A stretch of DNA of 64,000 bases from Patiria miniata. Lineage: Eukaryota. Positions 4,441-61,200 of the stretch are shown here, one piece after another; the stretch's first letter is position 1; each line of letters opens with the position of its first letter. Under the pieces are notes generated by a model. It was given only the letters and a program-made list of their open reading frames with translations, did not search any database and was not told the origin of the DNA. The DNA is taken from NCBI RefSeq assembly GCF_015706575.1, contig NW_024037073.1, forward strand, positions 20,022,740 to 20,086,739, read 5' to 3'. Both the position numbers and the translations under genes were made by a program.

Positions 4441-7210
4441 GAGCATTTTGGAGGATATGGGAAGGTCTAAGGTTAAAGGTTTAATTCAAAAAAGTTCCAG
4501 TCCACAGAAAAGTACAGGTTACAGCATTATTCAGAATTGGAAGACAGAAATTATCAATTTTAATTTACATGTGAATAATGAAGAGCAAACATCTATTTTT
4601 GTTTGCACATGAGTCTAAATGTGTACTTACAAATTCAGTTGGCAAGGGCTGAATGAATACAGTATCGTTAATGGCTGATTTTGTAGTGAATATATATTTT
4701 GTTGACCTATGTTGTCTTTTTCTGTGCTTTTTTTTCACATACTAAGCATTCTGGAGTGTACTAACAACCTTGTCTTTGACAGCAAGACGATGCACCCACT
4801 GGTAACAATGCAAGATTACAACTCTACACTGGGGGGGGGGGGGGGGGGGGGCAACACGTGCCCGTGCTTCCCCCCCCCCCCCTCCCCTCCCAAGTGCCCC
4901 CTAGCAACCTAACCCTAGTTACGCCGCTGGGTCATTACACACAAGCTTGTCACCAACAGTAAGATCATAAACACTGTGAGTAGTCAAATTTCATCAACAG
5001 ACAAAACAGGTAAGTGGTAGGTACAGCTTGCTTATCCATCACCACCAGTCAAAACATGGCTGTATCAAGTGACATAAACAGTCACAACCAGTCAATCCTG
5101 CTTTGGAGAACTCAACTGGCAGGAAACAGTCCCTTTCTTGAGTTTGACTGCTGGGATGGCTTTGTTGAATTTGCCAGACAGAGGAGTGTCATAAAAGGTG
5201 ATTTGTAATAAAAAAAAAAATTCAAAGGAGTTAGGTCAAACGAGCTTTGAAATAAGTTTGCACAATTTAAACTCAATTACGATTGCCAACATAAATTACC
5301 CAAAACAGCTCATTTAAAGCACCTACATTTCATTTACAAGCACCAATTAATACAGTCATGACTGGAGAGGCAATCAAGTCCTTCGAAGGCTGAAAAATCC
5401 CAACAAAAAGAGGGAACTGAAGTGAATATTGACTTGCACTTTTGAACAAACAAATCCAAAAAAGTCCTCTAGCTAATTGTGGTTACAGAGGAACCTTACA
5501 AATGGGCCTTATACACGAGTCGGCCATATTGAATTGAAAGTGAGGTAAAAGCTTAATTTTTGGAACTTGCCGAGAGAAATGAAAGCAACTTAATTACTAA
5601 TTAATTCCAGTCTGCTTCAATGAATTATTTAAAATTTGTGATTACACATTCCCTAATGTTTAAAGCCAGATTTTAAAAAAAAATTGCATAAATAGTCTGG
5701 CGCCATCCCATTCAATAGTTAATAATGAATGAAATACATTCAGGGAACTCGACAAAAATGGCCACTCGTGAATAAGGCTCATTGTGTGCCCTCTATCAAC
5801 CAAAGCCTTTTACAGTCTTTATCAACGTACATCCAATACAAGATTAGCAAACAACCAGTTCTTATATCCACATGGAAAAAACACCCCCATTCTGCCATTT
5901 CTTTAGTTACGCCATTTGAATTTCCCACCTAGGATCCAACGGTTCAAAGCTTGGTTGGTTTCTTTCACAATTTAAAAAGAAAAAAAACAATTAAGGTCAC
6001 TGCTCAAATGTGACTGGCTCCACAAAAAAAGGGTATTATGTCGCAAAAAAAGAGAGAAATTGAGTTATATACATGGGTGGAAGGCCCACAATGTAAGCTT
6101 TCATTTGGTATATAATAGAGCTCCATAGCCCCTGCTGTTCTGGAGATATGATGTATTTGCATATTAATTTCTTCCTTGGAGTTCGATTAAAACAACTGAG
6201 AAAACAGGCTTTGAAATAGCTGGCTTTGTTGTAGAACAACAGACCGATGCACCCAAATGGTTGTTTTTTCCACTTTGTTTATTAAAATCAACATTTCTGT
6301 GAATGAAACCTGGAACTGTAGGGATTTAAAGATGTCATTCATGACAAAAAATGAAAATCACATTTTGACAAAATTTTCACCCTCTTACACAATAATGTTT
6401 AGCGAGTTAATACCCTTTTTTGTGGAGCCGGTCACAAATCAAATACCACACTTTTTGTTCTTGTATTCATGCAAATTTGAAAATATTGAGGTACTTTAGC
6501 CTGCTCAGGGACATATTAAAGAAAAACTCTCTCTTCATGGACCAACCACTAAATTACACAAGTCATAAGCAGCCATATTTCCTAAGCAAGTTTTGAGCGG
6601 TCATTAAGAATCAATTTCAGGAAGTATAAATCTACAAAAGTTTGGTAAAATAAATATCTGCACTCTTTGTCAAACCTGGCTGATGGGGGGATTCCTCTAC
6701 CTCTTTAAAGCTCTTCAAAGTACGCCACCCTTGCCTTCGTCGTGCCAGATTTGATCTGTAAAGAAAATCGAACAGAACAGTCAAATATTGAATATTGCAA
6801 ATCTAAACCAGAGCTTATTTTACAATACTACATGTTCTTGTCGTCATACACATTTTTCTCAATACTTCAATTCTAAAAATTTAATACCAAAGTACAGTAC
6901 AAACTTATGTCATCGCAAATACACCAAAAAAACCAACAATTATTAGTTATATCAGGCTTCCAGTGGTAAAAATAATCAGCGCATTGTTTCCTTTCGTAAA
7001 AAGTACCAGGATGACTGCAATATTATGTCAGTATTAAAACGTACCCAGATGAGCACAATATTTTTTTCGATACTGTCTTCATCCGGGCATTTGAACAAAT
7101 TTCACTGTTTCCTGCTCAATCAAGAGTGTAGAAAGCCACAACTTGCATCAGTACAGCAAGGTCCCACAGATGCTTACACCTGATGCTCTGTGTTGCGTCT
7201 GCCAGGGTTA

Positions 7211-7943: not shown

Positions 7944-9037
7944 CTGGGCGAGACAAACAATAGAGGTAGGCGGAGTAAAATAAAGGGTGGAAATTTGGAA
8001 AGACTCTTTAAGAAGTCCAGAGGGAAAACGGGATGACTAAAGGTGGTCTTCCATTGTGTTACTCTGAACAGGATGGAATTTGCATCGGGGAGATGGAAAT
8101 TCAAGATTAGGTTTTGCCCTTCACCGAGAACAAATTCACAAGCTTACTCGGGTGGGACTGGAACCCACAGCCTCCTGCTTACTGGTGCAGACATCTTACC
8201 ACTGAACCACCAAGCTTGCCAGGATCGGCTGGCTGGTTCGAATTGGATAAAGCAGCAGGTACTGCACCCAAACTATTTATAGAATGGAATTTGCGTTGGG
8301 GAGATGTACATTCAATAATGGGTGTTGTACTCTGTTCCTACAGTTTCATACTTTTGTTTCAGAGTCTCGCCCAACATAAATGTGTTTAGATTGACCCAAG
8401 ACGACCAAAATAGAATTAGGTTTTTGACAAGCCAACTTCAATTTTCTACTGACTAGTCTCTGGACTTGTTTCAAAGGATTTCAACAGTCGATCTTCCGCG
8501 TTTGGCGCAGCTCCAGAATGCCAGGCCGCAACAGCTGTTAATACTCAATATCTGCCCAGTTTACTATAGGGGTGTTTTGTAAAACAAAATATTTTTTGGT
8601 GAACATTCAACTGCTACGTTTTGAGCTTGAATGTCAGCTTGAAAGAGATTTTTTATGATAAAGCAACTTCTATTCCATGTTCTTTTGTGCAGGGTAAAAT
8701 ATATTTTCTAGCCCTATTGCTGAGAGTGGATTTAGAAAGGTCATATAGAGGGCTCTCACTGACCCATTTGACTCGGCCTACATCCAGGTACCACAAAGTC
8801 AGCGTCGCCATTGTAGCAGACTAAGACCGATGGGTCGGCATGATTATGACAACCGTGCACGGCACAGGTAGTGACCATTATGCAATTTGATAACGGCTAT
8901 GCCACACGAAAATACACCATACTGTCTAATTTACAATGAATGACGTGGTTGCTGACTAAAGGCTTGCCTCCTGCACTGAGGTAGGGTCTGAAAAAGCAGC
9001 TGGATGGATGTAGAAAACATATCACGTTGATACAAAC

Positions 9038-13429: not shown

Positions 13430-13715
13430 ATGGACCATCAGGCCAGTGTTTATTTCCAGTTTCCTTGGTGTGAAGTGACTGAGAACATTTCTACTCCCCT
13501 AGATGGGATACCAGTCCATCTTTAGGTAACTCCCCAGCTAATGCTGTTACCCATTTATACTCCTGGGTGGAGAGAGGCAAGTGGGGGTGAAGTGGCTTGC
13601 CCAAGGACACAACATATGGCCAGCAGCTGGATTTGAACCCCTGACTCTCTGATCACGAGTCAAAACCCTAACCCCTAAGTCACACTGCCCAGAGGTACGG
13701 ACTTCACTCCGTGTC
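13430..13715 (-). mobile_element. tRNA-derived SINE with a Deu-domain-like core (..CCAGGAGTATAAATGGGTAAC..GATGGACTGGTATCCCATC..)
   Basis: tRNA-like head with B-box GGGTTCAAATCC on the minus strand plus the conserved Deu-type core; related copies at 31545-31935, 59925-60105 and 60660-60800. Confidence 0.7.
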
Positions 13716-15139: not shown

Positions 15140-16165
15140 TTGGACTTGTGACTGGACTAGTGACTGGACTAGTGACTGGACTTGTGACTGGACTTGTGAC
15201 TGGACTTGTGAAAGGATTGTGACTGGACTTGTGACTGGACTAGTGACTGGACTAGTGACTGGACTTGTGACTGGACTTGTGACTGGACTTGTGACTGGAC
15301 TTGTGACTGGACTTGTGACTGGACTTGTGACTGGACTTGTGAAAGGATTGTGACTGGACTAGTGACTGGACTTGTGACTGGACTTGTGATTAGACTTGTG
15401 ACTGGACTTGTGACTGGACTAGTGACTGGACTAGTGACTGGACTTGTGACTGGACTTGTGAAAGGATTGTGACTGGACTTGTGATTAGACTTGTGACTGG
15501 ACTTGTGACTGGACTTGTGACTGGACTTGTGACTGGACTTGTGACTGGACTTGTGATTAGACTTGTGACTGGACTTGTGACTGGACTTGTGACTGGACTA
15601 GTGACTGGACTTGTGACTGGACTTGTGAAAGGATTGTGACTGGACTTGTGATTAGACTTGTGACTGGACTTGTGACTGGACTTGTGACTGGACTAGTGAC
15701 TGGACTTGTGACTGGACTTGTGACTGGACTTGTGACTGGACTTGTGACTGGACTTGTGACTGGACTTGTGATTAGACTTGTGACTGGACTTGTGACTGGA
15801 CTAGTGACTGGACTAGTGACTGGACTTGTGACTGGACTTGTGACTGGACTTGTGAAAGGATTGTGACTGGACTTGTGACTGGACTAGTGACTGGACTTGT
15901 GACTGGACTTGCGACTGGACTTGTGACTGGACTTGTGACTGGACTAGTGACTGGACTTGTGACTGGACTTGTGACTGGACTAGTGACTGGACTTGTGACT
16001 GGACTTGTGACTGGACTAGTGACTGGACTTGTGACTGGACTTGTGACTGGACTTGTGACTGGACTTGTGATGGACTTGTGACTGGACTTGTGACTGGACT
16101 TGTGACTGGACCTATGATGGACTTGTGGCTGGACTTGAGAACTAACTTGTGAGGGACTTGATTAC
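15140..16165. repeat. 12-bp satellite (gtgactggact[t/a]) of about 85 copies with a higher-order periodicity marked by gtgaaaggatt/gtgattagactt variants every 120-130 bp
   Basis: Direct reading. The six-frame ORFs made of VTGL or QVQS repeats are translation artefacts of this array, which lies in NF2 intron 6. Confidence 0.9.
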
Positions 16166-16959: not shown

Positions 16960-17035
16960 CTTAATCTCAAAATAGTTGACTCCATACATTTCAAGATCTT
17001 GTGTGATTTTCAAATACTCCATCTCTGCTTCATCC
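16960..17035 (-). CDS. NF2: NF2 exon 5 ((R)[25 protein letters not shown])
   Basis: acag acceptor and gtaaat donor; aligns to merlin [26 protein letters not shown]; phase 1 to 0. Confidence 0.8.
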
Positions 17036-17329
17036 CTGTCAAAACAAAACATGAAAAAACATTTTAAAAATGTATTTCCTTTTTTGTATTAATTCTTTCT
17101 TAATTAACCTAAGCTACTTTCTATGTTACATTATGAATCGCTGTTAATCAGCATAGTATTTTCTTTATCGTGCTCCATAATTTTTTTTCTGGCCAATAAA
17201 ATTGATTCCTCATTTACAAGATTTCATCCCTGGTCCAAATTCACAAACCTTGACTATGATTCAGGGTCACTATCCCTTGATCCGATACACCTCGTGATAT
17301 TTACCACTTAATCCCACTGTTGGCATGCC

Positions 17330-17759
17330 ATACTGTTATGTTTTTTTTTTCTCCTCCCACATATCACAGCCAACCAATCAAAACTCTCATTCACAAATCT
17401 TCATGACTGATTCGTGACCACCATCAATGGTTCCCTCATCTCACCATATTCTTGCCTCATGAGTCCCTGGTGCTCCGCATACCATGCTGTTATTTTTTCT
17501 CCTCCCACATACCACATCCAACAAATCAAAAACTCTCATTCACAAAGCTTCATGAATGATTCATGACCTCCATTACTGGTTCCCTCATCTCACCATGACA
17601 AATTTACCTCGTGAGTCCCTGGTGCTCGGCATACCACGCTGTTATTTTTTCTCCTCCCATATAACACATCCAACCAATCAAAATCACTCATTCAAAAATG
17701 TTCATGAATGATTCATGACCTCCACCACTGGTTCCCTCATCTCACCATGACATAGTTAC
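17330..17759. repeat. About 3.5 tandem copies of a roughly 120-bp unit, each reproducing the 3' end of NF2 exon 4 plus its GT donor and adjacent intron
   Basis: The unit ..catgctgttatt[t]ttctcctcccacat..tcattcacaaa.cttcatga(a/c)tgattc(a/g)tgacc.cca..actggttccctcatctcaccatga..cctcatgagtccctggtgctc(g/c)gcataccatgctg.. repeats up to the authentic exon at 17760. Confidence 0.75.
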
Positions 17760-17911
17760 CTCATGAGTCCCTGGTGCTCGGCATACCATGCTGTTATTCT
17801 CTCCTCCCACATCTCAGCTGTCATGTCAAACTGCTCCACCACTCTCTGCGGCAAGAGTTCTTCGTTGGCTAGGAACCCTGGCTGGTGCACATTCTGTTCG
17901 TAGTCGCCATA
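17760..17911 (-). CDS. NF2: NF2 exon 4 ([50 protein letters not shown])
   Basis: ctgtgcag acceptor and gtaact donor; aligns to merlin [49 protein letters not shown]. Confidence 0.85.
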
Positions 17912-18048
17912 CTGCACAGAACAGGACCAAGCGAAATGCTAGAGATTCACTACACAGTGTGCCAAAAAAGTGCAACATTCAGAAAACAAATAATTAAAAC
18001 TGTTTAATGTTTTTCTTCAATGAAATTATATATTACATTAAAGCCTGA

Positions 18049-18325
18049 CTATTTCTCAATCCACTCCTTTTTACCCCATTCCATTTGGGTCCCTAGATCC
18101 AGAAATACAATCAATAAGTGAAAGGGTGTAAATTTTACTTGGGCCACTCTCACCTGGACATGCTGAATCTGGGTTAAGCATTGAATAAGCACTGAAGTTG
18201 GTGACATCACAGGTGAGAGTGGCCGAAGTAATACGTACACCCTTTCACTTAATTGATTGTATTTCTGGATCTAGGGACCCAAATGGAATGGGGTAAAAAG
18301 GAGTGGATTGAGAAATAGTCAGGAT
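18049..18325. repeat. Foldback element with roughly 95-bp arms that are exact reverse complements, separated by about 90 bp
   Basis: 18049-18145 (ctgactatttctcaatccactcc..) is the reverse complement of 18235-18325 (..ggagtggattgagaaatagtcagg); it lies in NF2 intron 3. Confidence 0.8.
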
Positions 18326-20425: not shown

Positions 20426-20985
20426 TAGGAAGTTAGGGTTTAAAAGCCTAAATATGTTGGGCCCGATCAGTGGATCTGCGTTATCACTCGATCGCCCAGA
20501 AATGCACTTGCGCGATCGGTCGATCCTGTAGGAAATCTCAGACTTTAGTTCCCTTTTCCAAAACAATCTTCCATAGCCATGAATAAGAAAGAAAATGTGA
20601 TCAACTAATGGTGGTTCGATTGACTGATAGCACAGCGTGATCGACCGATCGCGCAGATCCACCAATCATGCCCAACAAATAATCTTGGCTTTTCCTCACT
20701 TGCTTTGGATTTTCCTTTTCAGCATGTCTACTATCTGCACAAGATGTGTATGTCATTCCCACTTGCCAGAGAATTGAATCCCTAAAAATGTCAACACTTT
20801 TTTTCTTATTTTTAGCCACCACAAACCAAAAATTCACAGGATAACGAACAAGAGCTGAAAAGGGTGTACATGTCTCCTGACAGCAGCTGGGGCTTACTGT
20901 CTGAAATAAGGAATAATTTTTAAAAAATGGGGGGGGGGGGGGGGGGGGCGGCGGGCGCGAATTTGTTCTTTCTCCCACTACTTAC

Positions 20986-24254: not shown

Positions 24255-24605
24255 AGTCTGCAGAGTTGTAATCGCAAGTCAATCACAAATCAATCGCAAG
24301 TCAATCACAAATCAATCGCAAGTCAATCGCAAGTCGATCACAAGTCAATCACAAGTCAATCACAAGTCAATCACAAGTCAATCGCAAGTCAATCACAAGT
24401 CAATCACAAGTCAATCGCAAGTAAGGTCAGAAGTAACAGTGGATGAACAATAACAAAGGAATGCCTTTGTCAAAGTTCATTTGAATAGCTTGTGAGTTGA
24501 CTTGGGACTGGAGGACTTGTGATTGATTTGTAATGACTTGTGATGATTTGTAACGACTTGTGATGACTTGTGATGACTTGTGATGACTTGTGACTGCCTC
24601 GATTA
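24255..24605. repeat. 11-bp microsatellite (caatcacaagt / caatcgcaagt, about 15 copies) followed roughly 60 bp later by the same array in reverse-complement orientation (gacttgtgatg..), giving a long inverted-repeat structure
   Basis: Direct reading; a related fragment (gacttgtgatggact, cattcctttgttattgttcatccactgttac) recurs in inverted form at 46930-47060. Confidence 0.75.
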
Positions 24606-26179: not shown

Positions 26180-26368
26180 CTGCATCTCAGGTCCAGACAC
26201 AGCGATGGCCCGGATGGTGTCCGATCCGATGGAAGTGACCATCTTGTTAAACTTGTCGGTCTCGATCTCCGACATCTCACGGGACTTGCCAATCTCCATC
26301 TCGTTCTGCTCAGTCACATACTTGAGCTCGGCCTCGCGGGCGTGGGTCAGACGATCAAGCTCAGATTC
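26180..26368 (-). CDS. MVP: MVP exon 13 (ESELDRLTHAREAELKYVTEQNEMEIGKSREMSEIETDKFNKMVTSIGSDTIRAIAVSGPEMQ)
   Basis: Six-frame ORF 26111..26317(-); cactccag acceptor and gtgggt donor; aligns to human ..[22 protein letters not shown]. Confidence 0.9.
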
Positions 26369-26620
26369 CTGGAGTGAAAAAAAGAGGATGGAATTAGAAA
26401 ATATTGAGATTAAAGGGGATTAATGCCTTGCGGGCGTGGGTCAGATGCTTCAGGTCAGTTTCCTGGATTACCAAAACCTGAGGGATTAGCAAGAGATTGA
26501 GATTTTAGGAATGAATGCCCAGTTATGTGATCCAGCTCGGCTTTGCGGGCGTGGGTCCGATGCCCCAGCTCAGTTCCATGGATTACCAAAAACAGAGGGA
26601 TTGGCGAGATGGAGATTAAT
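26369..26620. repeat. Three tandem degenerate copies of the MVP exon-13 5' end plus acceptor flank (..cttgcgggcgtgggtc(a/c)gatgc..cag(c/g)tcagtt(t/c)c(c/a)tggattaccaaaa.c.gagggatt.gc(a/g)aga..gagatt..agg..at(t/g)aatgc)
   Basis: Units at about 26330-26410, 26420-26520 and 26530-26630 each carry a copy of GCCTCGCGGGCGTGGGTCAGACG-like exon sequence. Confidence 0.65.
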
Positions 26621-27186
26621 AGGGGATTAATTGCTTAGTGATGTAACTTTGAGCTTAGCATCCTTGGAGTTGGTAAAACACTACTCGGATTCATGGATTA
26701 ACCATCACCATTTGGAGAGTTCCCAGCTAAAGTTTTCCAGGCACATCAATTTGCTAACAATACTTCCTGCTTAGCAACTCAAATAAATTGGGTCCTTAAC
26801 CCTAACCACACCAACCTGTCAAAATCCAACTGCATGCTTTGTTTGATTCTGTTGGAGTGAGGACTGCAGAAAATTGATTATGCTTTACATGGGGTCAGGC
26901 ATAGCACTATAATCAGAGAACAGTTTGGTTGTTGAGTTACCAAATGGTGTTGGATTTTGCAAGAGTGAGGAAGGTTCCTAGTAAATCACTCAAGGGGGTT
27001 AGGGCTAAAGAATCCAATTTTAGGTAGCTGCTAGGCAGAAAATATGGGTATTTACTTGGTAAAAATTTGCTTGATATTTTGGCTGGTACCTGTTTTTTTT
27101 TGCAAGGAATTACTTTCTACGCTTAGCAAACTTTAGAGCTTAGCAACTCCAGGAAAACTGGGATCAGGTACGAATGTGTGACTCAC

Positions 27187-31544: not shown

Positions 31545-31935
31545 TGCTGTCACTGGCATTTATCTGCGGTTTCCTTGGCATGGAACAACTAAGATGTTTC
31601 TATTCCCCCGGATGGGATACCAGTCCATCACAGGTTACTCCCCACCTAATACCAGGACCCATTTATACTCCTGGGTTGGAGAGAAGCAAGTGGAGATAAA
31701 GTGGCTTGCCCAAGGACATATTATATAACCAGCAGCTGGAATTGAACCTCTGACCCTCTGATCAGGAGTCACGAACCCTAACCACTACGCCACACTCCCC
31801 ACAGTGCTCCTGGGTGGAGAGAGGCAAGTGGGGGTGATGTGACTTGCCCAAGGACACAACATATGACCAGCAACTGGATTCGAACCCCTGACCCTCTTAT
31901 CACGCGTCACGAACCCTAAACACTAGGCCACACTC
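31545..31935 (-). mobile_element. Two adjacent tRNA-derived Deu-type SINE copies, one nearly full (31545-31802) and one truncated (31803-31935), in MVP intron 6
   Basis: tRNA-like head GGGGAGTGTGGC(C/G)TAGTGGTTAGGGTTCGTGAC on the minus strand, B-box, then the conserved CCAGGAGTATAAATGGGT..GATGGACTGGTATCCCATCCGGGGG core. Confidence 0.75.
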
Positions 31936-32111
31936 CCCCATTGCTTAAACACATCAAAAACTTTTCCACATCTGAATCAGCATGCAGGTTATAACTATAG
32001 TGAAACCATAGAGCAGTTTTTGTGGCCTGTCCTTTTTATTCCTGCTATCCTTCTTTACCACACATCAACTTTGTCACAAATACTTATACCAAAACTGTCT
32101 TAGAAACTTAC

Positions 32112-32237
32112 AGCGTCTGTGTCCTTGAAGGCCTCCTGGGACCTGAGCATGAGTCCCTCGTCCTCTCCCAGGACAAAGATACCTTGGATGCCCTTCTCAA
32201 GATGCTCACCGGGACGCAGGAAGAAAGACTTCTCACC
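32112..32237 (-). CDS. MVP: MVP exon 6 (GEKSFFLRPGEHLEKGIQGIFVLGEDEGLMLRSQEAFKDTDA)
   Basis: cttatag acceptor and gtaagt donor; aligns to human [42 protein letters not shown]. Confidence 0.85.
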
Positions 32238-32746
32238 CTATAAGACATCAAGGAGAGAAGAACAGGAGGACTTCAGAGTTTCTTGCTCAACTTTAGCTGG
32301 TTTAACCAATTTCAAAATTCCCGGAGATCAAAGTGTTATTAAGGAAAAGGGGTTTATGGTGTTAAATGCACAACATTTTGTTGTTGCCAAGAATTGAAGC
32401 ATAGATATGGTGCATTAAACTTAATAGAATATGGGCCATTAGGTAATCTAACAATTCCAATGTACTAACATATAACTACTGTGATACTTAACATAATTAC
32501 ATTGTTGTGTAGGGGAAGGTTATATGTTTGTTGGGGGGGGGGAGTGGTGGTATGTTTTGGGATTCTTTCTCTTTCTTTCAATTTCTCACATAAAGCATTA
32601 CAGAATTGCTTTGCACCAATCAACTTGGGTCTTCACAGTTGAAAACCAAATTCAAGTGATAACATTTCTCAAGGTTTTCAAGCTAAATCACAGGCTACAC
32701 TCAAAAGGCGGGCAAGAAAGTCGTTCCGATATAACTTTGTACCTAC

Positions 32747-32857
32747 CTTGACTAGTTTCTTCTGGCCCAGCTGTGGCTTGCCGTCCTCACCTACAGGATC
32801 CAGGATCACACAATACTGCCGGTTGGTCAGAGTGGTGATGGCTACGACTCCAACAAC
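32747..32857 (-). CDS. MVP: MVP exon 5 ([37 protein letters not shown])
   Basis: tttgtag acceptor and gtaggt donor; aligns to human [37 protein letters not shown]. Confidence 0.9.
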
Positions 32858-33776
32858 CTACAAAGTGCCAAGCGAACAGTAAACAGTCACAAAATGAAAA
32901 CAGAGTACCAATGCATTACCTAATAAACCCCCAAGGTGTTTCGATCTGTTTTCAAATAATCTTTGTAAATCTGCCAAAATCCAACACTGAGATGGTTGGC
33001 TTCATCATTTTTGCCAGTAATTTGAGGTCTACAAGGAAAGTAAACACACGTTTGGTGCTGATTAACCCTTCTTTTTGCTTGATCAGTTACAGACAGACAA
33101 CAATTAAATCCTGTTCCCCTGCCATATGCCAGGCATGCAACATGGAACTAACAAAAAATGAGGAAATACCAATCTTTACAGGACTTTGTACAGTGTTTTT
33201 TAATTTTAAATGGCAAAAGTCTGAAGGGAAAAACGAGGAAATCAGCTGATCCAAGGAAAAGTTGCATGCCTGATATATCTTTTACACAGGCTAGTCCCCA
33301 TCAGTCAGATCATATTTCCTGTACGCAAGAGGTGCTGGTATTATTTTTGAATGATTATCATAATCTAAAAATCTCACTATATGTAAGGTTTTCTTTTCCT
33401 GCATTTAATTCGGGCGATTCACAATGCAGTGCGCGCCACCAAGAGTTTGCCACGAAGAGCTCATTTTTCCCAGTGCATTGTTGGAGATGGTCGACAAATT
33501 CGCAGCGCGGGACATTTGAAATTGTTCGTTTTTCCAGTCAGTTGTTTCGTAAGCGTATGATTCGAGTATTTGTTTGCCCTTTTCTTTTCTTTGTATCAAT
33601 ATGGTGTTTTTTGTAAGGCGGCAAAAGGCAAGCCCCAATCTATAACAAATTAGCTCAAGTTGTCTACTGACACTCATTCAAATGGGCCATGTTTTGTTGA
33701 TCAAACTTGAAATATGGACTCTCCATGACAAACTCTTGGTGGCACACTGCCTTGTGAGTTGCCAGAATGAACCTAC

Positions 33777-33902
33777 CTCCTCGTAGACCTGAGGAATGTG
33801 GGCTTCAGTGTCCTCCATGGTGATCAGCCATTCCTCTCCGTTCTTCCTGACCACGCCATGGTCGTCCTTGAAGGTACGGGTTGCAGTGACGTGGAGTGCT
33901 TT
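33777..33902 (-). CDS. MVP: MVP exon 4 (KALHVTATRTFKDDHGVVRKNGEEWLITMEDTEAHIPQVYEE)
   Basis: Six-frame ORF 33678..33923(-); catgcag acceptor and gtaggt donor; aligns to human [43 protein letters not shown]. Confidence 0.9.
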
Positions 33903-34019
33903 CTGCATGAAGAAAATTACCAAAAAATGTTCATCAATTTGTGGGTGATAGTTATTAACCCTAACCTTCCCAAATCATCCAAAATTCTCTTCGCAAAATG
34001 GGGTATTTCGCAGGATTGA

Positions 34020-34345
34020 GGCTATATGGCAAAAATGTGTGTCTGATTTTGGAGGATGCGCTGTCAAGATCTTATTAGGCCGGATCTTGTGTTATTTATG
34101 CTCAGTGGTGCATAACTTTAAGCCTAGATTATACTTGAAATCCTCCGCACTGCTCCAGGATGTCACTGGCTGTGCCTCAACATATTGCAAGTGATTGCTG
34201 GAGGATTTTGCAAGATCGAGGCAGTGGTCGTCCTCCAAGGACCACACTCAAAAAATAACGGATGAAGTTGGAAGATTGAGACTGCATGCAAGTTTTACAT
34301 GGAGGCAATTGGAGGATTGTGCAGGATTGAGGCTGCATCCTAGCA
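34020..34345. repeat. Copy of the dispersed ggattttgcaggattgagg repeat family, in MVP intron 3
   Basis: Homologous to 60995-61200, 20215-20425 and 4130-4440. The break in homology of the MVP partial duplicate falls inside this element. Confidence 0.75.
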
Positions 34346-34420
34346 AAAAATGCCTGGGGAATTAGGGTTAAGTGATGGGTGACTTTCATACAAAAGGGCA
34401 GAATGCCGTAGATGATGTAC

Positions 34421-34774
34421 CTTGTCTGTCAGCACGTAGGCATTCACCACGCCCACCACCTCCTCGTAGGCCCCCGGCAGGTAAGCGCCAACCTTTTTGA
34501 CCAGCCACTCTTCCCCGGTCACTCTGGCATCCCCCTGTCGGTCCAGTGTCTCCTTCCTTGCCCGCAGCTTGATGGCCTGGTTGGCCTTGATGATGGTCGC
34601 CCGGACCGTCTCGTCCACGACGACTTCCTTGCGGGGGATGTAGGTGCCCGGACCTTCAAAGAGCCACTCGTCGCCGGCCACGCGCTTGGTCTTGGCCACG
34701 GCGTCGTCGAAGTCTAGGATAGCGCGGAGTCGGAGGGCCGAGTTGGCTGGGACTACCTTGAGTGCAGTCACAGG
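34421..34774 (-). CDS. MVP: MVP exon 3 ([118 protein letters not shown])
   Basis: Six-frame ORF 34340..34978(-); tgtttcag acceptor and gtacat donor; aligns to human ..[85 protein letters not shown].. Confidence 0.9.
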
Positions 34775-35480
34775 CTGAAACACAATGGGGAAAAATCTAT
34801 GATACAACAACTGAGTAAACCAGTTGGGAGTCTTATCCACTTCAGGATAAATACATATGGTAATCACATACAAGTCAACAGCCCATTCGATTACTGCCCC
34901 CGCACTTACTCGTGCAAGTGCCACTGCGTTCAAATTAATCCTCACGTGACTTCTCACGCTTACGCGAGCCTGGCCCAAGTAACCGACCCGCTGAGCCCGT
35001 TACTCGGTTAAATGTCCCACGTGTAAGTCTAACGCTGCGGCGGGGAGAATTCAAAAGTGTTTCAGGTTCACTTGACTTCACACTTGTACAAGACGACGGG
35101 ATGAAAGTCAAGTTTTAAAATTTAAACATAGAGCAAGGATATACATGGGATTTCTTGTTCACTTTGGAAGAGCAGTACAGTGGTGGCCACCACGGCTCGC
35201 TTTCGACGGCTCGAATCCACTATGCAAAGAGGATTTAATCGCCGCAAGACCTCTTGACTCGGTTCGGTTGCTCTGGCTCGACCTGGAGTAACCCGCGATG
35301 ATTCGTTTATTGCTACAGATTGCACATGTGCATCTATACCCAACACGAAATTAAGGGTAAGCTTGAGGGAAGTAATCAAATGCGCTGTCTGTGTCTGTAC
35401 AGCCCTACTGCTTTAAGACCAATAAATAAAAGTAACCAACAAACGTCGAGAGAAACAAATAACAAAACACAGCAAATTAC

Positions 35481-35676
35481 CAGTTTCAGGATTTCTCCCG
35501 GGTAGAGAGGGAATGGTTCTTGAGTCAGACGGATCTCCTGGTCGGCGTGGTTCAGCTTGATCTGTCCGCTCTGGTCCTCAATCACCGAGCCGTCCTCGTT
35601 GCGCTGGACAGGGTTCTCAATGATGCAGTAGTGACGAGGGGGGACCATGGCCATCTTCTCGGGACCGAAGATGACC
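35481..35676 (-). CDS. MVP: MVP exon 2 ((R)[65 protein letters not shown])
   Basis: Six-frame ORF 35376..35654(-); ctttttag acceptor and gtaatt donor; aligns to human [65 protein letters not shown]. Confidence 0.9.
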
Positions 35677-35924
35677 CTAAAAAGGGGGAAAAGGAAAGGA
35701 CGGAGATCTTGAGGCTCAGAAATATATTTTTTGTATCAAACGTCTAATGCGAAATATTTAGGATTGACTGTGCCTTAAAGCTGAGATCTGAGTATGGTCA
35801 CATTCGCACGGCCATGTTGATGAAATTCAATCCCGTGCCAACATTGCTCCATGATCTTGGAAAGCTCAAGCCATGTGAGGGGGTAGTGTCTCGTTATTTT
35901 GGAAACCTGAAGGGATGGTAAACT

Positions 35925-36183
35925 AAAGAGAAGGTAACCTGAAGGGAAGGTAGCCTAAAGGGAAGGTAGCCTGAAGGGAAGGTAACCTGAAGGGAAGGTA
36001 ACCTGAAGAGAAGGTAACCTGAAGAGAAGGTAACCTGAAGGGAAGGTAACCTGAAGAGAAGGTAACCTGAAGAGAAGGTAACCTGAAGAGAAGGTAACCT
36101 GAAGAGAAGGTAACCTGAAGAGAAGGTAACCTGAAGAGAAGGTAACCTGAAGAGAAGGTAACCTGAAGGGAAGGTAACCTTGT
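35925..36183. repeat. 16-bp minisatellite (gaagggaaggtaacct / gaagagaaggtaacct) of about 16 copies in MVP intron 1, immediately 3' of the exon-1 donor
   Basis: Direct reading; the homologous position of the second MVP copy (about 63460-63520) carries a single unit only. Confidence 0.9.
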
Positions 36184-36207
36184 TCAAGATTTGATGATGT
36201 GTCTTAC

Positions 36208-36383
36208 CTTTCATGGTCCTGCCTGATGAATGTGCGGGGCCCAGTCTCCACAGTGGTGACATTTGTGTTGTGGTTGAGCACGTGGATGTAGTAGTAGGGT
36301 GGGATCCTGTAGATGGACTCCTCCGAACCACTCCCGCCCGCAAAGCCGAAAGGGGCACCGCCACGCTTTCCCTTTTCTGTCAT
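36208..36383 (-). CDS. MVP: MVP first coding exon ([58 protein letters not shown])
   Basis: ATG at 36383; gtaaga donor; aligns to the human N-terminus [37 protein letters not shown]. Summed over all 14 exons the CDS is 2595 nt, giving 864 aa (human MVP is 893 aa). Confidence 0.9.
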
Positions 36384-37029
36384 TTTGATTGTTTATTCTG
36401 TAATTAAACATATTAGAATATTACAATTAAGATTTATTTCTGGAAATATTGCACAGGACACATGTATCACTGATTAGTCCCTGTGGTACCAAGTGCATGT
36501 ACAGAAATCTGTAGAGAGAAGATAATTCCAAAATCCTCCAAAATCCTCTTTGCATAAAGTGGAAGATTTCGAAGGATTGAGCCTGTACGGCAAACCTGTG
36601 TCAGTTGATTTTGGAGGATGCATTGTGTTAAGCCAATTGTAAAGATCAAAGTTCATTTTTAATAAAGTAATTACAACCTTAAGCTTCAACACATCACACA
36701 TTCCAGGCAACCCGCCTTGTTTATCCAAGTAAGGTTTTGGTTGGATATTAAAATGTCACAGATTAGTTTCCAGTGTTGACACCTGACGCTCCCTTCTTCT
36801 GAAATCTCTCCAATAACACACTACAATGCTTTTTAAATTATAAAAAAAAGATTTCAATATCCTCGACTTAAAGGCAGAGTACATCATTTGCAGCGTTCCA
36901 AAAAGTAACTGACAAAGTTATTGCTGAAAAGCATACTTGGTTTAAAGATGGTAATGGCACTAAACTCCCTGTGAAATTATTCTTTCCGCCATGCTGTCAT
37001 GAAGAAAACAAAAAGAGAAGGCAATTTCC

Positions 37030-41799: not shown

Positions 41800-43345
41800 A
41801 CGGATGTACGCCACTGCCCTTGGGTGACACTGGGACGACTTTAAGGCAGGTTTTATCCGTGATGACAAAAACATTTCTTTGTGGTGACAACAACATTGGT
41901 TTGTCCTAATATTTTTATAAGCTTATTTAACCTATCCTGAACATTAATTAAAGGAAATTGCAAACCAGTCCGGTAGGTAATGATTGAGTTATTGTTCAAG
42001 CAACGCGTGTGTATTTTCTGTACACTGAGACGGCCTTAAGACAGGTTTTCTCCGTGATTACACAATTTTGTTTGTGACTGCAACATTGGTTTGCCTTAAT
42101 ACTTTATATGCTTATTTAACCTGCACTTAACAATAATTAACGGAAATCCAAAACAGTACAATAATTATTTAATGAGTTATTGTTCAAGCAACGCGTGGGT
42201 TGTTTCTGCGCGTTCAATAGTCGGGAGTATTTTCTGTACACTGGGACGTCTTTAAGGAAATTAAGGCAGGTTTTATCCGTGATGACAAAAAAAGTTCTTT
42301 GTAGTGACTGCACCATTTGTCTGTCCTAATATTGTATAGGCTAATTTTACCTATCCTTAACATTAATTAAAGGAAATTTTAAACCAGTCCGGTAGGTATT
42401 GACTGAGTTGTTGTTCAAGCAACGCGTGGGTTGTTTCTGCGTGTTCAATAGTCGGGAGTATTTCCTGTACACTGGGACGTCTTTAAGGCAGGTTTTGTCC
42501 GTGATTACACAATTATTGTTTTGGGTGACTGCAACATTGATTTGTCTTAATCCATTATAGGCTTATTTGAACTTTACTTAACAATAATTTACGGAAATTT
42601 CAAAACAGTACGATAACTATTTAATGAGTTATTGTTCAAGCAACGCGTGGGCTGTTTCTGCGTGTTCAATAGTCGGGAGTATTTTCTGTACACTGGGACG
42701 ACTTTAAGGCAGGTTTTCTACGTGATTACACAATTATTTCTTTTGGTGACTGCAACTTTAATTTGTCTTAATACCTTATAGGCTAATTTTACCTATCCTC
42801 AACATTAATTAAAGGAAATTTCAAACCAGTCTGGTAGGTATTGATTGAGTTATTGTTCAAGCAACGCGTGGGTTGTTACTGCGTGTTCAATAGTCCGGAG
42901 TATTTTCTGTACACTGGGACGTCTTTACGGCAGATTTTCTCCGTGATTACACAATTATTTCTTTTGGCGACCGCAACATTGATTTGTCTTAATACTTTAA
43001 AGGTTGATTTGACTTATACTTACTAATAATTAACGGAAATTCCCAACCAGTACGACAAGTATTTAATGAGTAAATGTTCAAGCAACGCTTGGTTTGTTCC
43101 TGCGTGTTCAATAGTACGGAATATGTTCTGTACACTGGGACGTCTTTAAGGCAGGTTTTATCCGTGATGACAAAAAAAGTGTTTTGGGGTGATTACAACA
43201 TTGTTTTGTCTTAATACTTTATAAACTTATTTAACCTATACTTAACAATAATTATCGGAAATTCCAAAACAGTACGATAAGAATTTAATGAGTTGTTGTT
43301 CAAGCAACGCGTGGGTTGTTTCTGCGTGTTCAATATCTGCGTGTT
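41800..43345 (+). repeat. About 7 tandem copies of a 210-220-bp unit (..ctgggacgtctttaaggcaggttttatccgtgat.acaa..ttaattaaaggaaatt.caaaccagtccggtaggtattgactgagtt.ttgttcaagcaacgcgtgggttgtttctgcgtgttcaatagtcgggagtattttctgtacact) directly 5' of the Penelope-like ORFs
   Basis: Periodic near-identical units; probably the tandem-repeat 5' region of the retroelement. Confidence 0.8.
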
Positions 43346-43698: not shown

Positions 43699-46425
43699 TT
43701 GTTCCCTCCTTCGATCATGTCTAACCAAAGATACGTTCGCTTGTTTCAGGAACTTAGGAAACTTAAAGAGAAAGCACTACATTATTCGTATCATCGAGAC
43801 AACTACAGATTCTACACACTAACCAATTTCATTCCCACAGGTTTGCAGGTTAAATTTGACCCAGCCCTTGGGTCTCTGTCTACCCCACTTCGCAAGCGGT
43901 GGAACAGCACACTCCATAGTACATCTCTCAGCCTCATTCGTATTCTAACAGAACATTGTGATGTTTGTCTCAACAGCTTCAACCAAGATATTTCCTGTCT
44001 TCAAGCAGAACTTAGATCCATCTGCTCAGAAGCTCGTTTTGCGCAATTTACCAGTGAGATCGATACTGGTTTATCTAAACTTGAATCTGTTCTTAATTGC
44101 AGGAGAAATGGTAAGATTGGTCGTCTTGTCGCCAAACAGCAACAGTACAGACAGCGACGTTTCAAGCGTAACATACCCCCTGAGGCTGAGCAGTCAGCCC
44201 CTCCATCCACAGTTATTAACCTCTCATCATCTACCCTTTCAGATTCAGAACACAGCCTGCTCTCCAAGGGACTCAACTTCTGCCCCACTCCCCCCACAGC
44301 CTCAATCAGGTTGAGCTCAGTCAGGACCTCACTGACTATACCGCAGAATTCGCCTTCGTGAATTCTTCCTTGACTCACCATGCACCCATGGATCCAGAGC
44401 CATTTTACTGCAAGAGTAAATGGGCACCACCAAAGAACCGTGTTCCTTCCCTTGAAACTTACATACAGGTTGTTAGTTCACAAATTAATTCAAGCGATCA
44501 TTCCACCCATTGGACTCATGACAACCTCCCTAGAGAAGAACGTGAGGCCCTTAAGACTCTACGAGCACGGAAGGACATCATCATCAAACCAGCTGACAAG
44601 GGCTCTGCTGCTGTTGTCATGGGCCGTCAGCAATACATCGATGAAGCCATGAGACAACTCAACAACCAAACTAACTATAAACCCCTTGACACTGATCCAA
44701 CAGGTACCTTTTCAAAGGAGATTCAACAGACACTGGACGAAATGCATGACCGTGACCACCTCTTCAAGAAAGCTCACAAGTTTCTTTCCCCAGTCGATTG
44801 TAGAACAGCTAGATTTTACCTTCTTCCCAAGGTACATAAACCAGATAACCCAGGGAGACCCATCATATCTGGCAATGGTTCCCCCACTGAGAATATCTCT
44901 TTTTGTTGACCGTTTTCTCAAGCCTCTAGTGCCACAGATTCCATCATATATTCATGACACTCCTGATTTCCTCCGTAAAATCTCAGGTATTCAGAACCAG
45001 GTCCCCAACACAGCTATCATCGGTACTTTTGATGTGTCCTCTTTGTACACCAACATTCCCCAAGATGAAGGGATTGCTGCCTGCTCTTCAGCTTTGGCTA
45101 AGAGCAGTCACGACTCACCGCCCATTTCTGATATAGTATCCCTCATGAACCATGTTCTAACTAAAAACAATTTTTCGTTCATGGGTAAGAATTTCCTACA
45201 GGTACATGGCACCGCTATGGGTACACGGATGGCACCATCAATGGCCTGCCTATTCATGAGCCAACTTGAACAGCGCATGTTGGCGTCAGCCCCGTGCCGT
45301 CCCTGGGTCTGGTGGCGCTATATTGATGACATCTTTTTCATCTGGACCAGTGATGGATCTAGCCTCACAGCATTCATTAATCACATCAATTCCTTCCATA
45401 GGACCATCAAATTCACAACCGAATACTCAACCAAGGATACCCACTTTCTGGATGTCAAGGTTCTAAAGACGGACGATGGTTTGATCACAGATCTCTTAGT
45501 TAAACCCCCAGATAAACACCAATATCTCCACTCAACCAGCTGTCATCCCCGACACTGCAAAACCAGCATAGCCTACAGTCAGGCCCTCAGACTCCGTCGA
45601 ATCTGTTCTAAAGATTCCGATTTTATCCACCACTCACAGGAACTTAAGAAACACCTCGTCTCCCGGGGTCATAGCTCCCTGGCAGTCCATCGAGCAATCC
45701 AGAAAGTCAAGGCTCGCTCCAGGGAGTCAGTACTTTCAAAAAGACCTGTTTAACAACAGAGTTCCAAGGAGAAAGTTCCCTTTGTTGTCACTTTCCACCC
45801 CTCACTTCCCCCCATTTGTACAATAACCAGTTCTAACCATCATATTCTTCACACGTCAGATCGACTTCAACGTGCTGTACAAGAAGAACCCATGGTTGCC
45901 TACAGACGGCCACCCAGTCTCAGGGATCTCATTGTCCGGGCAGAAGTCCCCCCCCCCCCCTTAATGATAATGTTAACCCCCCTTTGCCACAGTGAACTTT
46001 CAGGTGTCCCAACACCTCCAAATGCATCCTCGGTAGACAACACATCAGAGAATCGGACTCCTTCACCAGCCATACCGGTGGTACCACCCATAGGACAAGG
46101 GGTCATGTCACCTGCACCACCACCAATCTAATCTATTTAATATCTTGCAAAGTTTTTGGTGTTCAATATATAGGTGAAACGAGAACTACACTCAAGAGAC
46201 GTTTCTACGGCCACAGATCCACAGTCAACACCCATAAGCTGGATACACCCGTAGGACATCATTTCAATCTTCCTAATCACTCAATTTCTGACATGATTTT
46301 ACAGGGCATTGAGGCACTAGGAAACCACAGAGAGATTGTTCGTCCGAGTAGAGAGAAATTTAATATGGATAAGACGTCTCCAGACCATCCAACCCCATGG
46401 TCTGAACATCCAAGAAGGAAATGAC
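43699..46425 (+). mobile_element. Penelope-like retroelement: reverse transcriptase (..YIDDIFFIW.., ..FLDVKV..KPPDKHQYLHSTSCHP..) followed by a GIY-YIG endonuclease (LIYLISCKVFGVQYIGETRTTLKRRFYGH), with ORFs fragmented over 3 frames
   Basis: Six-frame ORFs 43699..44361, 44358..44909, 44686..45753 and 45892..46131, plus an unlisted frame at 46100-46425 carrying the GIY-YIG motif. Frame breaks coincide with homopolymer runs such as C13 at 45948-45960. Confidence 0.8.
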
Positions 46426-47559
46426 TAATAACTTTTTGTCTTTACCTTCTCCTTTTCACCACAGATAAGCCACCCCCCCCCTCCAGTCTGCCTCATTCAC
46501 CAATTAACTACCTTTCTCTCCCTCTCCTATCATTGACTTTGTCCTTTGTGTTCCCCACCTCTTGTGGTCAACCATCCCCTTCCCCCAATCCCCCTCCTTT
46601 CTGTTCAGCCACCTGCTTTCTCTGTGTATTTTCCTCTGCATCATCTATTTCCACTTGACTTATGTTAAATACATTTTTACAAGATGTACATGCTGAAGAT
46701 AATTTAAGGGGGTGGAGACAGGGCAGGCTGGGGGGGGGGGGGGGGTTCCCTCCATTTTAAGACTTCCTAAAACAGGTTACATGGGCTCAACAGCGCTTGC
46801 TGTAAGTGGTATGTTTGTCTGAATCCCTGTATGAATGCAAAAATGTTGTGTCAGGCAGGCAGGGTAACGACTTGAACCACATCCGTGCCTCCATTCCCAT
46901 GGTTCAAATCAGTGATTTAGTCAAGTCCCTGCAAGTCCATCACAAGTCCTCCAGTCCCAATATAACTCACAAGCTATTCAAATGAGCTTTGACAAAGGCA
47001 TTCCTTTGTTATTGTTCATCCACTGTTACTTGTGCCTGGACTTGTGATGGACTCAAATACATGTTCAATGACAACAGAAATTATTTCAAACGTAAATATA
47101 CGAGTATATATAGTCACTACATGCCAAACCTTGCAAAATTTAAGTCAGCCAAGTACATAATTAAGCACATTTGACGTATACAGTGAAATCTGATAACTCA
47201 AAACAAATGTCAAGTCAAACAAAGTATCCATTCCCTTCAGTATAAGTATAACAATGATATACAACCCTGCTTAACTCAAAACTCTGCTGAAGTCAAATTT
47301 TGAACCTGTTCCCTTGAGGTTTGATTTACCAAGATTGATATTCTGGACCCGCCTCTAATACTGAAGTTTAGAGGTGCCTAAACTTAAAGGGAAAAAAAAC
47401 CTCTGCAGTGAAGCCCAATGTAAAAGCAAAAGATTTGGACAATACACTGATGAATAGTTGAAATAACTTTGAGGAAACAAATTTAACAGCACCACAGCCA
47501 CCTTTGAGAAGTGTGCTTATTTGTTCAACGGGGACACCCATGAGTAGACCTCTGATGCA

Positions 47560-55029: not shown

Positions 55030-55112
55030 AGCCGACCCGGCAAGCTCGGTAGTTGAGCGGTAAGACTTCTGCACTAGAAAGCAGGTCATGGGTTCGAGTC
55101 CCACCCGAGTGA
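55030..55112 (+). other. tRNA-like sequence (D-arm GCTCGGTAGTTGAGC, T-arm ATGGGTTCGAGTCCCAC) that is either a tRNA pseudogene or a SINE head, followed by the hairpin cccgagtga..tcactcggg
   Basis: Canonical D-stem/loop and B-box are present, but I could not fold a clean acceptor stem. Confidence 0.3.
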
Positions 55113-55889: not shown

Positions 55890-56775
55890 AAATACATGAT
55901 TTCTATTGTTTTAGCCACTGTGAACTTGACCCTTGACCTTTTGGCCCCAAATTCAATAGGCTTCTTAGGATTACCAAGAACAATCCACAAACCAAATTTG
56001 AAGTTCACATGTAAAGTATTTCTCAAGTTATCGCGCTGACAAGATTTTTATTGTGTTAGCCACTGTGAACTTGACCCTTGACCTTTTGGCCCCAAATTCA
56101 ATAGGCTTCTTAGGATTACCAAGAACAATCCACAAACCAAATTTGAAGTTCACATGTAAAGTATTTCTCAAGTTATCGCGCTGACAAGATTTTTATTGTG
56201 TTAGCCACTGTGAACTTGACCCTTGACCTTTTGGCCCCAAATGCAATAGGCTTCTTAGGATTGCCAAGAACAATCCACAAACCAAATTTGAAGTTCACAT
56301 GTAAAGTATTTCTCAAGTTATCGCGCTGACAAGATTTCTATTGTTTTAGCCACTGTGAACTTGACCTTTGGCCTTTTGGCCCCAAATGCAAAAGGCTTCT
56401 TAGGATTGCCAAAAACAATCCACAAACCAAATTTGAAGTTCACATGTAAAGTATTTCTCAAGTTATCGCGCTGACAAGATTTCTATTGTTTTAGCCACTG
56501 TGAACTTGACCTTTGGCCTTTTGGCCCCAAATGCAAAAGGCTTCTTAGGATTACCAAGAACAATCCACAAACCAAATTTGAAGTTCATATGTTAAGTATT
56601 TCTCAAGTTATCGCGCTGACAAGATTTCTATTGTTTTAGCCACTGTGAACTTGACCTTTGGCCTTTTGGCCCCAAATGCAAAAGGCTTCTTAGGATTACC
56701 AAGAACAATCCACAAACCAAATTTGAAGTTCATATGTTAAGTATTTCTCAAGTTATCGCGCTGACACGATTTATC
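55890..56775. repeat. Satellite of about 6 copies of a 145-bp unit (..ttagccactgtgaacttgacc.ttg.ccttttggccccaaat.caa.aggcttcttaggatt.ccaa.aacaatccacaaaccaaatttgaagttca.atgt.aagtatttctcaagttatcgcgctgacaagattt.tattgt..)
   Basis: Direct reading; lies in an intron of the Q-rich gene and is followed by (CACACCC)n. Confidence 0.9.
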
Positions 56776-59924: not shown

Positions 59925-60105
59925 GATCAGCGCAATTTAGTCTCTACCTTCACAGGTACCCATTTATACTCCTGGGTGGAGAGAGGCAATTGTAGTAAAG
60001 TGTCTTGCCCAAAAACACAAGCACCATGTTCCCCATCAGGGTTCGAACCCATGTACCACTGCATGAGTCGAACACCAAAACCATTGGACCACGGTGCTCC
60101 ACTGT
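59925..60105 (-). mobile_element. Deu-type tRNA-derived SINE copy
   Basis: Contains ..ggtacccatttatactcctgggtggagagaggcaa.. and a GGTTCGAACCC box. Confidence 0.6.
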
Positions 60106-60290: not shown

Positions 60291-60659
60291 TCTCTGACAT
60301 GCAGATAACTAATGCCACTTTCCTTTGGTTGTATAACCTTCACAGTGACTTGCCTGGACTTTCCTCAATACTGCACAAAATCCTCAAAAACCACCTGGTA
60401 AATACCTACGGTTTGTGCACTTTCAGATGAAATGTTTTAGGACTTATGGGTTACAGACACTGTTAAAGAGGCATCACAGCCTGAAATCCCCGAAAATTTC
60501 TTATGTGGGATTGATTACTTATACAGGGGTGTGAGTGACCACTGATAAAAATAGCTGAAAAAGGTGTAAAAAAGCTGAACTTTGGAAATCTCCTACACTT
60601 TTGTACACGGCAAGTGAGGGAAAAAGCTGAAAAAAAAGCTGAAATCCAAAACAAAAAAA

Positions 60660-60990
60660 GCCTAACCACTAGGCCACACTCCCCACAGTGCTCCTGGGTG
60701 GAGTGAGGCAAGTGGGGGCGATGTGACTTGCCCAAGGACGCAACATATGTCCAGCAGCTGGATTTGAACCCCTGACCCTCTTATCATGAGTCACGAACCC
60801 TAAACACTAGGCCACACTCCCCCATTGCTTGAACACATCAAATGCTTGAACATATCAAAAACTTTTCCACATCTGAATCAGCATGCAGGTTATAACTATA
60901 GTGAAACCACAGAGCAGGTTTCGTGACCTGTCCTTTTTATTCCCGCTATCCTTCTTAACCACACATCAACTTTGTCACACATGCTTATAC
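60660..60990 (-). other. Segment homologous to MVP intron 6 (31780-32100), including a truncated Deu-SINE copy, retained in the partial MVP duplicate
   Basis: About 90% identity by eye between 60660-60990 and 31780-32100; homology stops about 12 nt short of the exon-6 donor. Confidence 0.75.
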
Positions 60991-60994
60991 CGAA

Positions 60995-61200
60995 AATATC
61001 CAGGATGTCACTGGCTGTGCCTCAACATATTGCCAGTGATTGCTGGAGGATTTTGCAGGATTGAGGCAGTGGTCACCCCTCAAAGGACCACACTCAAGAA
61101 ATACCAAATGGCGTTGGAGGATTAAAGCTGCATGCAAGTTTTACATGGAGGCAATTGGAGGATTGTGCAGGATTGAGGTTGCATCTTAGCAAAAAATGCC
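60995..61200. repeat. Copy of the dispersed ggattttgcaggattgagg repeat, homologous to 34150-34345 in MVP intron 3 of copy 1
   Basis: Direct comparison. Confidence 0.75.

Follow-up and report, generated by a model that had tools for sequence, protein, structure and literature searches.

The window, a 64-kb stretch of animal nuclear DNA with about 40% G+C and abundant satellites and SINE-like copies, carries two genes on its minus strand, the merlin gene NF2 (21916 to 7778) and the major vault protein gene MVP (36329 to 24967). Both were mapped by tblastn, using human NF2 and MVP sequences as queries, and a splice-aware search between neighbouring matches gave canonical GT-AG junctions for most introns of the two genes. 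The junction search was unreliable at the 5' end of NF2, in NF2 after 13851, and at MVP exons 3/4 and 10/11, and these junctions were excluded from the donor and acceptor sets. In protein searches, the closest named relative of the multi-exon merlin model was Branchiostoma (74%), and a metaclust sequence reached 80%; for a query made by joining the peptides of two exons, the best matches lay at 65-78% and included a partial protein of the coral Desmophyllum. In exact look-ups, two ORFs of the window matched no record. A sequence-only reading had already named the two genes and placed the junctions discussed below at exons 4 and 13, and the tblastn and splice-aware mapping agrees with these names and with these numbers, counted as coding exons of the window.

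The 5' part of MVP occurs a second time, incompletely, on the minus strand at 60658-63957, corresponding to 31774-36631. The matches between the two comprise 34154-35760 with 60999-62610 (94.7%), 36163-36631 with 63481-63957 (90.7%) and 31774-32094 with 60658-60995 (89%). MVP exons 1-3 recur at 63646-61258 with open frames (tblastn). Since the remainder of the gene is missing, this second copy is a truncated duplicate or a pseudogene with an internal deletion.

The repeat content of the window is varied. Three satellites were observed, at 160-800 (42 bp x 15, 94%), 41827-43335 (221 bp x 6, 81%) and 55894-56772 (145 bp x 6.1, 97%), the last of which is recent, given its 97% matches. A 12-bp repeat, TGGACTTGTGAC, occupies much of NF2 intron 6 with about 86 copies over about 1 kb (15141-16160), and a related motif, GACTTGTGAT, occurs in both orientations just downstream of MVP (24270-24422 and 24514-24593) and at 47028-47053. 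Judging from the satellites, tandem amplification at a local scale evidently happens often in this genome. NF2 intron 3 contains a palindrome of about 280 bp (18044-18323), whose arms at 18067-18115 and 18252-18300 are 49 nt long and 100% complementary, with an inner arm pair of 42 nt that is 90% complementary; it looks like a MITE or foldback element. Additionally, a 355-aa ORF on the plus strand (44686-45753) encodes a reverse-transcriptase domain (Pfam RVT_1, E 4e-8) and was on this account assigned to a retroelement; it has neighbouring ORFs at 43699-44909 and lies in the strongest negative GC-skew stretch of the window. Weak matches to a tRNA model were found at 8144-8216 (minus strand, 32 bits) and 55043-55112 (plus strand, 29 bits), and a repeat common to both sites (8146-8234 and 55110-55026, 80% identical) suggests that they are copies of a tRNA-derived SINE. 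Another family (13449-13694, 31559-31945, 59953-60079 and 60691-60829), tRNA-like by eye and lacking an Rfam match, is dispersed over introns of both NF2 and MVP, and makes a 138-bp two-copy "tandem repeat" at 31668-31945. Long homopolymer runs of G or C (16-26 nt) lie at 4831-4851, 4870-4891, 20929-20948, 46730-46745 and 63058-63083; one such run, G20 on the plus strand, follows the NF2 exon-2 donor at a distance of about 40 nt.

The features of the NF2 locus that concern the present analysis are as follows, where a slash marks an exon-intron junction.

17760..17911, minus strand: NF2/merlin coding exon 4 of the window, 152 nt (tblastn, splice-aware search, crinoid and bivalve orthologues)
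17756..17758, minus strand: in-frame TAA (ATG AG/G TAA) just past the end of exon 4 (translation)
16960..17035, minus strand: NF2 exon 5, 76 nt, acceptor TTTTGACAG/G (tblastn, splice-aware search)
17661..17812, minus strand: U0, founding copy, exon tail 17812-17760 (53 nt) plus 99 nt of intron, with the authentic donor inside
17509..17660, minus strand: U1, 90% identical to U0
17360..17508, minus strand: U2, 149 nt, 89.7% identical to U0
about 17210..17359 (distal boundary approximate), minus strand: U3, decayed fourth copy, 68-71% identical to the other units

Beginning in phase 0, exon 4 encodes 50 residues and the first two bases of a split R codon, and it is flanked by the acceptor TGTGCAG/TAT and the donor GAG/GTAACT (17762-17754). 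We take this exon to be human NF2 exons 5 and 6 fused (69 + 83 = 152 nt), and its donor presumably corresponds to the human exon-6 donor. The intron that follows, from exon 4 to the start of exon 5 at 17035, is 724 nt long and bears the array.

Tandem copies of the NF2 junction are indeed present 3' of exon 4, as first proposed, and alignment of the units indicates that they do contain exon-derived sequence. The dimensions given at first, a unit of about 120 bp with about 35 nt of exon, have to be revised: the period is 152 bp (149 in U2) and the exon-derived part is 53 nt. The unit consists of the final 53 nt of exon 4 and the initial 99 nt of the intron, repeated head-to-tail at spacings of 152, 152 and about 149. 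Tandem Repeats Finder reported the array at 17345-17812 (period 152, 3.1 copies, 88% matches, score 719), a repeat search returned 152-nt copies at spacing 152 with 89% identity, and self-blastn aligned 17323-17662 with 17477-17812 (86.6% over 344 nt). Pairwise identity among U0, U1 and U2 is 88.5-90%, with z of 38-42 against shuffles, and that of U3 to the other units corresponds to z of 7.5-11.5. The exon-derived 53 nt of U0, ATGTGGGAGGAGAGAATAACAGCATGGTATGCCGAGCACCAGGGACTCATGAG, begins ATGTGGGAGG and ends CATGAG. A 29-mer across the junction, GGTATGCSGAGCACCAGGGACTCAYGAGG, has three occurrences on the minus strand; in 100 dinucleotide-preserving shuffles it never matched. Self-blastn and a pattern search found no further copy of the unit in the 64-kb window, and an exact scan of metagenome contigs for the 29-mer gave 0 matches. 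In the tblastn search with NF2, the intronic pseudo-exon tails appeared as weak extra matches at 17660-17607 (E 0.02) and 17517-17449 (E 0.009).

Within the unit, a perfect 17-nt palindrome, TCATGAATCATTCATGA, is present on the minus strand of U0 (17702-17718) and U1 (17550-17566) and is mutated in U2. This element might bind a protein, or form a hairpin that favoured slippage. As a candidate for breakpoint microhomology, a GATGTG motif is found near both ends of the NF2 unit, its two copies lying 143 nt apart and not 152. The array matched no Rfam family and folds no better than its shuffles (z = 0.0).

The authentic U0 donor, GAG/GTAACT, is in use by protein homology. It was scored together with the intronic sites in a crude donor matrix derived from 19 well-supported authentic donors of the NF2 and MVP genes of the window, which range from 5.0 to 12.0 bits; the authentic donor itself reaches 8.9 bits. 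The intronic donor-like sites are the following.

17610-17602, minus strand: U1 decoy donor GAG/GTAAAT, intact, with GT at 17607-17606, 9.6 bits
17458-17450, minus strand: U2 homologous donor GAG/GCAAGA, GT mutated to GC
17307-17299, minus strand: U3 donor-like GTG/GTAAAT, GT in decayed context, 7.6 bits
17748-17740, 17596-17588 and 17447-17439, minus strand: second donor-like site ATG/GTGAGA, three copies, 7.6 bits each

Each copy had been described as reproducing the GT donor, and this is the case for U1; in U2 the position reads GC, and in U3 the GT stands in a decayed context, so that U1 is the only intronic unit that keeps GT at the homologous position in near-identical context. The idea of a ladder of decoy donors is therefore retained in a reduced form: donor-grade sites do exist, with U1 at 9.6 bits against 8.9 for the authentic donor, but just one rung is near-identical and carries a GT. 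The second donor-like sequence, ATG/GTGAGA, lies 14 nt downstream of each primary donor position and is invariant in U0-U2. Use of the downstream donors would add 152, 304 or 455 nt, all out of frame, and any use of an NF2 decoy donor, or read-through, leads to a premature stop.

At the MVP locus, a triple repeat of the exon-13 acceptor region had been reported by the same reading, and the repeat search and shuffles bear this out, as the authentic unit and two clear upstream copies. The exon and the units are listed below.

26180..26368, minus strand: MVP coding exon 13, 189 nt, peptide ESELDRLTHAREAELKYVTEQNEMEIGK...GPEMQ (tblastn, splice-aware search)
26309..26423, minus strand: M0, authentic junction, with 60 nt from the start of exon 13 after about 55 nt of intron
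26424..26517, minus strand: M1, 94 nt, 77% identical to M0, with 39 nt exon-like
26518..26632, minus strand: M2, 115 nt, 77% identical to M0 and 83% to M1, with about 60 nt exon-like
26633..26747, minus strand: M3, possible fourth unit, with a TAATCCATG motif at the same 115-nt spacing

The repeat search placed three copies at 26331, 26425 and 26540, spaced 94 and 115 apart. M0, M1 and M2 are 77-83% identical with z above 20, and each comprises about 55 nt of intron and 39-60 nt of exon sequence. The overall similarity of M3 (z of about 3) is within the range of shuffles. The donor of exon 13, CAG/GTGGGT, was set by eye at the exon end, 26180; the reading frame agrees with this placement and the site was kept in the donor set. 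The authentic acceptor is CCTCTTTTTTTCACTCCAG/GAA, also given as CACTCCAG/GAA, with the exon starting at 26368, and 17 of the 18 positions scored in its tract are pyrimidines. Across the 19 authentic acceptors of the set, these counts run from 12 to 18 of 18. The decoy acceptor of M1, AATCCAG/GAAAC, keeps its AG at 26464-26463 and has 11 pyrimidines of 18, below all authentic acceptors, and at the corresponding position of M2, AATCCAT/GGAAC, the AG is lost. Use of the M1 acceptor would add 94 nt, out of frame and including a stop (translation).

The history of the NF2 array can be read in part from the copies themselves. The duplication ran from exon into intron, because the exon copy encodes a peptide common to human, crinoid and bivalve merlin. 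All three intronic copies contain a 2-nt expansion of an A-run, in which GAGAGAATAAC becomes GAGAAAAAATAAC or longer and the reading frame is broken. The intronic copies therefore derive from, or were homogenised to, a single intronic founder, and do not represent repeated fresh duplications of the exon. In some characters the intronic copies are closer to each other than to the exon copy, and U0, U1 and U2 are roughly equidistant overall; the four sequences may fit one founding duplication followed by amplification, or gene conversion.

Two orthologous merlin loci were compared, one from a crinoid (Antedon mediterranea) and one from a bivalve (Potamilus streckersoni). Each has one single exon of 152 nt here, with identical boundaries, the phase-2 donor (...AG/GT) and a next exon that starts A GAT GAA GCT, and no copy of the NF2 junction was found in either orthologous intron. 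Since the boundaries are shared and the array is absent in Antedon and Potamilus, the NF2 intron is ancient, the first donor of the ladder orthologous and the array lineage-specific. Gain of the intron itself by tandem duplication was ruled out by the same boundaries and phase in the two orthologues. It had been considered alongside a mobile element or satellite that became partly exonised, and the many satellites, the SINE-like copies and the reverse-transcriptase ORF of the window would suit such an origin. However, the unit occurs nowhere else in the 64-kb window and the residues that its exon-derived part encodes are conserved from human to bivalve, which makes this part ancestral, and we regard an origin of this kind as extremely improbable.

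The equality of the NF2 period and the length of exon 4, both 152, would also be expected of a remnant of whole-exon tandem duplication, that is, of decayed alternative or mutually exclusive exons. The copies argue against such a remnant in several respects, as they lack an acceptor, their frame is broken by the A-run insertion, and just 53 of the 152 nt of the exon were copied. Furthermore, the 99-nt intron part and the 99-nt exon head were not similar in global, local or in-register comparisons (p at least 0.09 against shuffles), and whole-exon duplication was rejected. This explanation is accordingly given next to no weight, and the equality of period and exon length is treated as coincidence.

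Divergence between the copies amounts to 10-23%, with indels in addition (149 against 152 nt in NF2; 94 against 115 nt in MVP), so the copies are old and not identical duplicates created by assembly. The copy number does rest on one assembly, and mis-assembly of repeats might in principle have produced the arrays or altered their copy number. An artefactual expansion would give identical copies, whereas the units differ by at least 10% in NF2 and by 17-23% in MVP, plus indels, and the same type of structure occurs at two separate loci; an assembly artefact is very unlikely on these grounds. One GT of two and one AG of two have been lost, as neutral decay would produce at 10% (NF2) and 17-23% (MVP) divergence. 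GT and AG loss being no commoner than overall divergence predicts, it gives no indication either way of selection against the decoys.

Arrays of this type have precedents. Intron 7 of human F7 contains a VNTR of 37-bp monomers, the first of which extends across the exon 7-IVS7 boundary, so that the authentic donor is followed by identical pseudo-sites; the most upstream site alone is used, the others were functional when tested, and the authors argue for a 5'-to-3' oriented search for donors (Borensztajn et al., PLoS Genet 2006, PMC1557585). The NF2 array resembles F7 in its head-to-tail arrangement within an intron, in a first unit that holds the authentic junction, and in an authentic donor that is the most upstream. 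U0 contains the exon end at 17760, and in MVP it is likewise M0 that contains the authentic boundary, the exon start at 26368. The likeness is partial with respect to the repetition of the donor consensus downstream as pseudo-sites, since here one decoy alone keeps its GT. The two also differ in scale, with 152 bp including 53 nt of exon here against 37 bp including 4 nt of exon in F7, and the NF2 array has only three extra units, diverged by 10-30%.

Passages of the same article describe further cases (PMC1557585). Minisatellites span junctions in IFI6 (6-16) intron 2 and CBS intron 13, where two proximal pseudo-sites are used, and in LMNB2 (100-bp monomer, 10-15 repeats) and PDGF intron 4 (81-bp monomer, 16-18 repeats), where the authentic donor only is reported as used. 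All four share with NF2 a long-period array that starts at a donor junction, and all four have many more copies. The exclusive use of the authentic donor in LMNB2 and PDGF is the pattern that we infer for NF2 here, and the use of two proximal pseudo-sites in IFI6 and CBS departs from it. Engineered tandem duplications of donors and acceptors in globin genes, known from classic cis-competition work and recounted in the same article, gave outcomes that were contradictory between laboratories (PMC1557585). As in those constructs, duplicated junctions with exon sequence compete for one partner, and the NF2/MVP locus offers natural donor and acceptor versions; the constructs differ in being artificial, with identical copies. 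It is also accepted that new splice sites and introns can arise by local tandem duplication within genes (PMC3443670). The same mutational process yielded extra splice sites here, but no new intron arose: an existing intron, shared with crinoids and bivalves, was lengthened. The NF2 and MVP arrays are thus further examples of junction-spanning intronic minisatellites. No acceptor-side counterpart to the MVP array is described in the review of cases in PMC1557585, and the acceptor-side array is a less commonly described mirror image.

In view of the F7, IFI6 (6-16), CBS, LMNB2 and PDGF cases (PMC1557585), the statement that such junction duplications are unusual was too strong, and a random-placement analysis leads in the same direction. 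NF2 and MVP are compact, with 48 mapped junctions in 28.6 kb, and contain four local long-period duplications (units of 152, 83, 138 and about 115 nt), two of which span a junction. When units of the same sizes were placed at random, counting as hits those that reached at least 20 nt beyond a junction in both directions, 0.55 junction hits were expected and the probability of two or more of four was 0.09, which is not significant. Selection would also remove duplications that lie wholly inside exons, and those that span a junction leave a working gene. For both reasons, two junction arrays do not point to a special process. If splice junctions were duplicated preferentially in this genome, the mutational cause might be, for example, breaks or template switches linked with exon-positioned nucleosomes or co-transcriptional splicing complexes. 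Such a process is hinted at by the two of four duplications that span junctions (P of about 0.09) and by the NF2 period that equals the exon length, and we consider it quite unlikely.

We therefore favour, with a probability of roughly 85%, two independent, lineage-specific, minisatellite-like tandem duplications, each of which straddled a pre-existing junction by chance, with decoys that are silent or rarely used and arrays that have no function. The silence of the decoys and the lack of array function are inferred. At NF2, the last 53 nt of the exon and the first 99 nt of the intron, 152 bp together, would have been duplicated into the intron, and the intronic copy would then have been amplified or homogenised to give the three further units. 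At MVP, duplication upstream of exon 13 would have involved about 115 bp, of which about 55 nt came from the end of the intron and about 60 nt from the start of the exon. A correct mRNA can come only from the copy that adjoins the rest of the exon, so the authentic donor stands first, and the authentic acceptor last, in its ladder.

The authentic NF2 donor would win by position, as the first site and the one that closes the normal 152-nt exon, through exon definition and a 5'-to-3' preference; this choice by first-site preference is proposed because it has been shown experimentally for human F7 IVS7. The authentic MVP acceptor would win through a much stronger pyrimidine tract and because it adjoins the exon body. 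Decoys would be silent, or would give rare transcripts with premature stops that nonsense-mediated decay clears, and the arrays would be neutral or slightly harmful passengers that diverge by mutation. Some mis-splicing may well occur, because U1 scores 9.6 bits against 8.9 for the authentic donor and because proximal pseudo-sites are used in IFI6 and CBS (PMC1557585). The earlier suggestions of cryptic splicing and of slippage-prone copy number are both reasonable.

The same observations bear on the possibility that the decoys are functional, with regulated use of downstream donors or upstream acceptors providing dosage control by unproductive splicing, or with binding of U1 or U2AF to the arrays tuning splicing efficiency. 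A decoy donor in unit U1 as strong as the authentic one, the invariance of ATG/GTGAGA in U0-U2, the premature stop that follows from every decoy choice and the use of proximal pseudo-sites in human IFI6 and CBS (PMC1557585) would all agree with such a role. Against it, the Antedon and Potamilus orthologues lack the array, the copies are decaying (GT to GC, AG to AT, with U3 and M3 degenerate), no structure or conservation signal was detected, and chance accounts for the overlap with junctions. Functional decoys are thus considered unlikely, and they are the principal alternative to the favoured reading.

Under the favoured reading of two chance duplications, the arrays are probably harmless. 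For annotation, homology-based gene predictors may misplace the end of exon 4, which is followed by protein-matching pseudo-exon ends with donor-grade sites. If a junction-targeted process did operate, ladders of this kind would be common genome-wide and would serve as a replicated natural test of how donors and acceptors are chosen. Should the decoys be silent, the two arrays would provide non-mammalian natural cases in which ladder position and exon context outweigh raw splice-site strength; if they are used, they would represent a tolerated cost of mis-splicing in two conserved genes.
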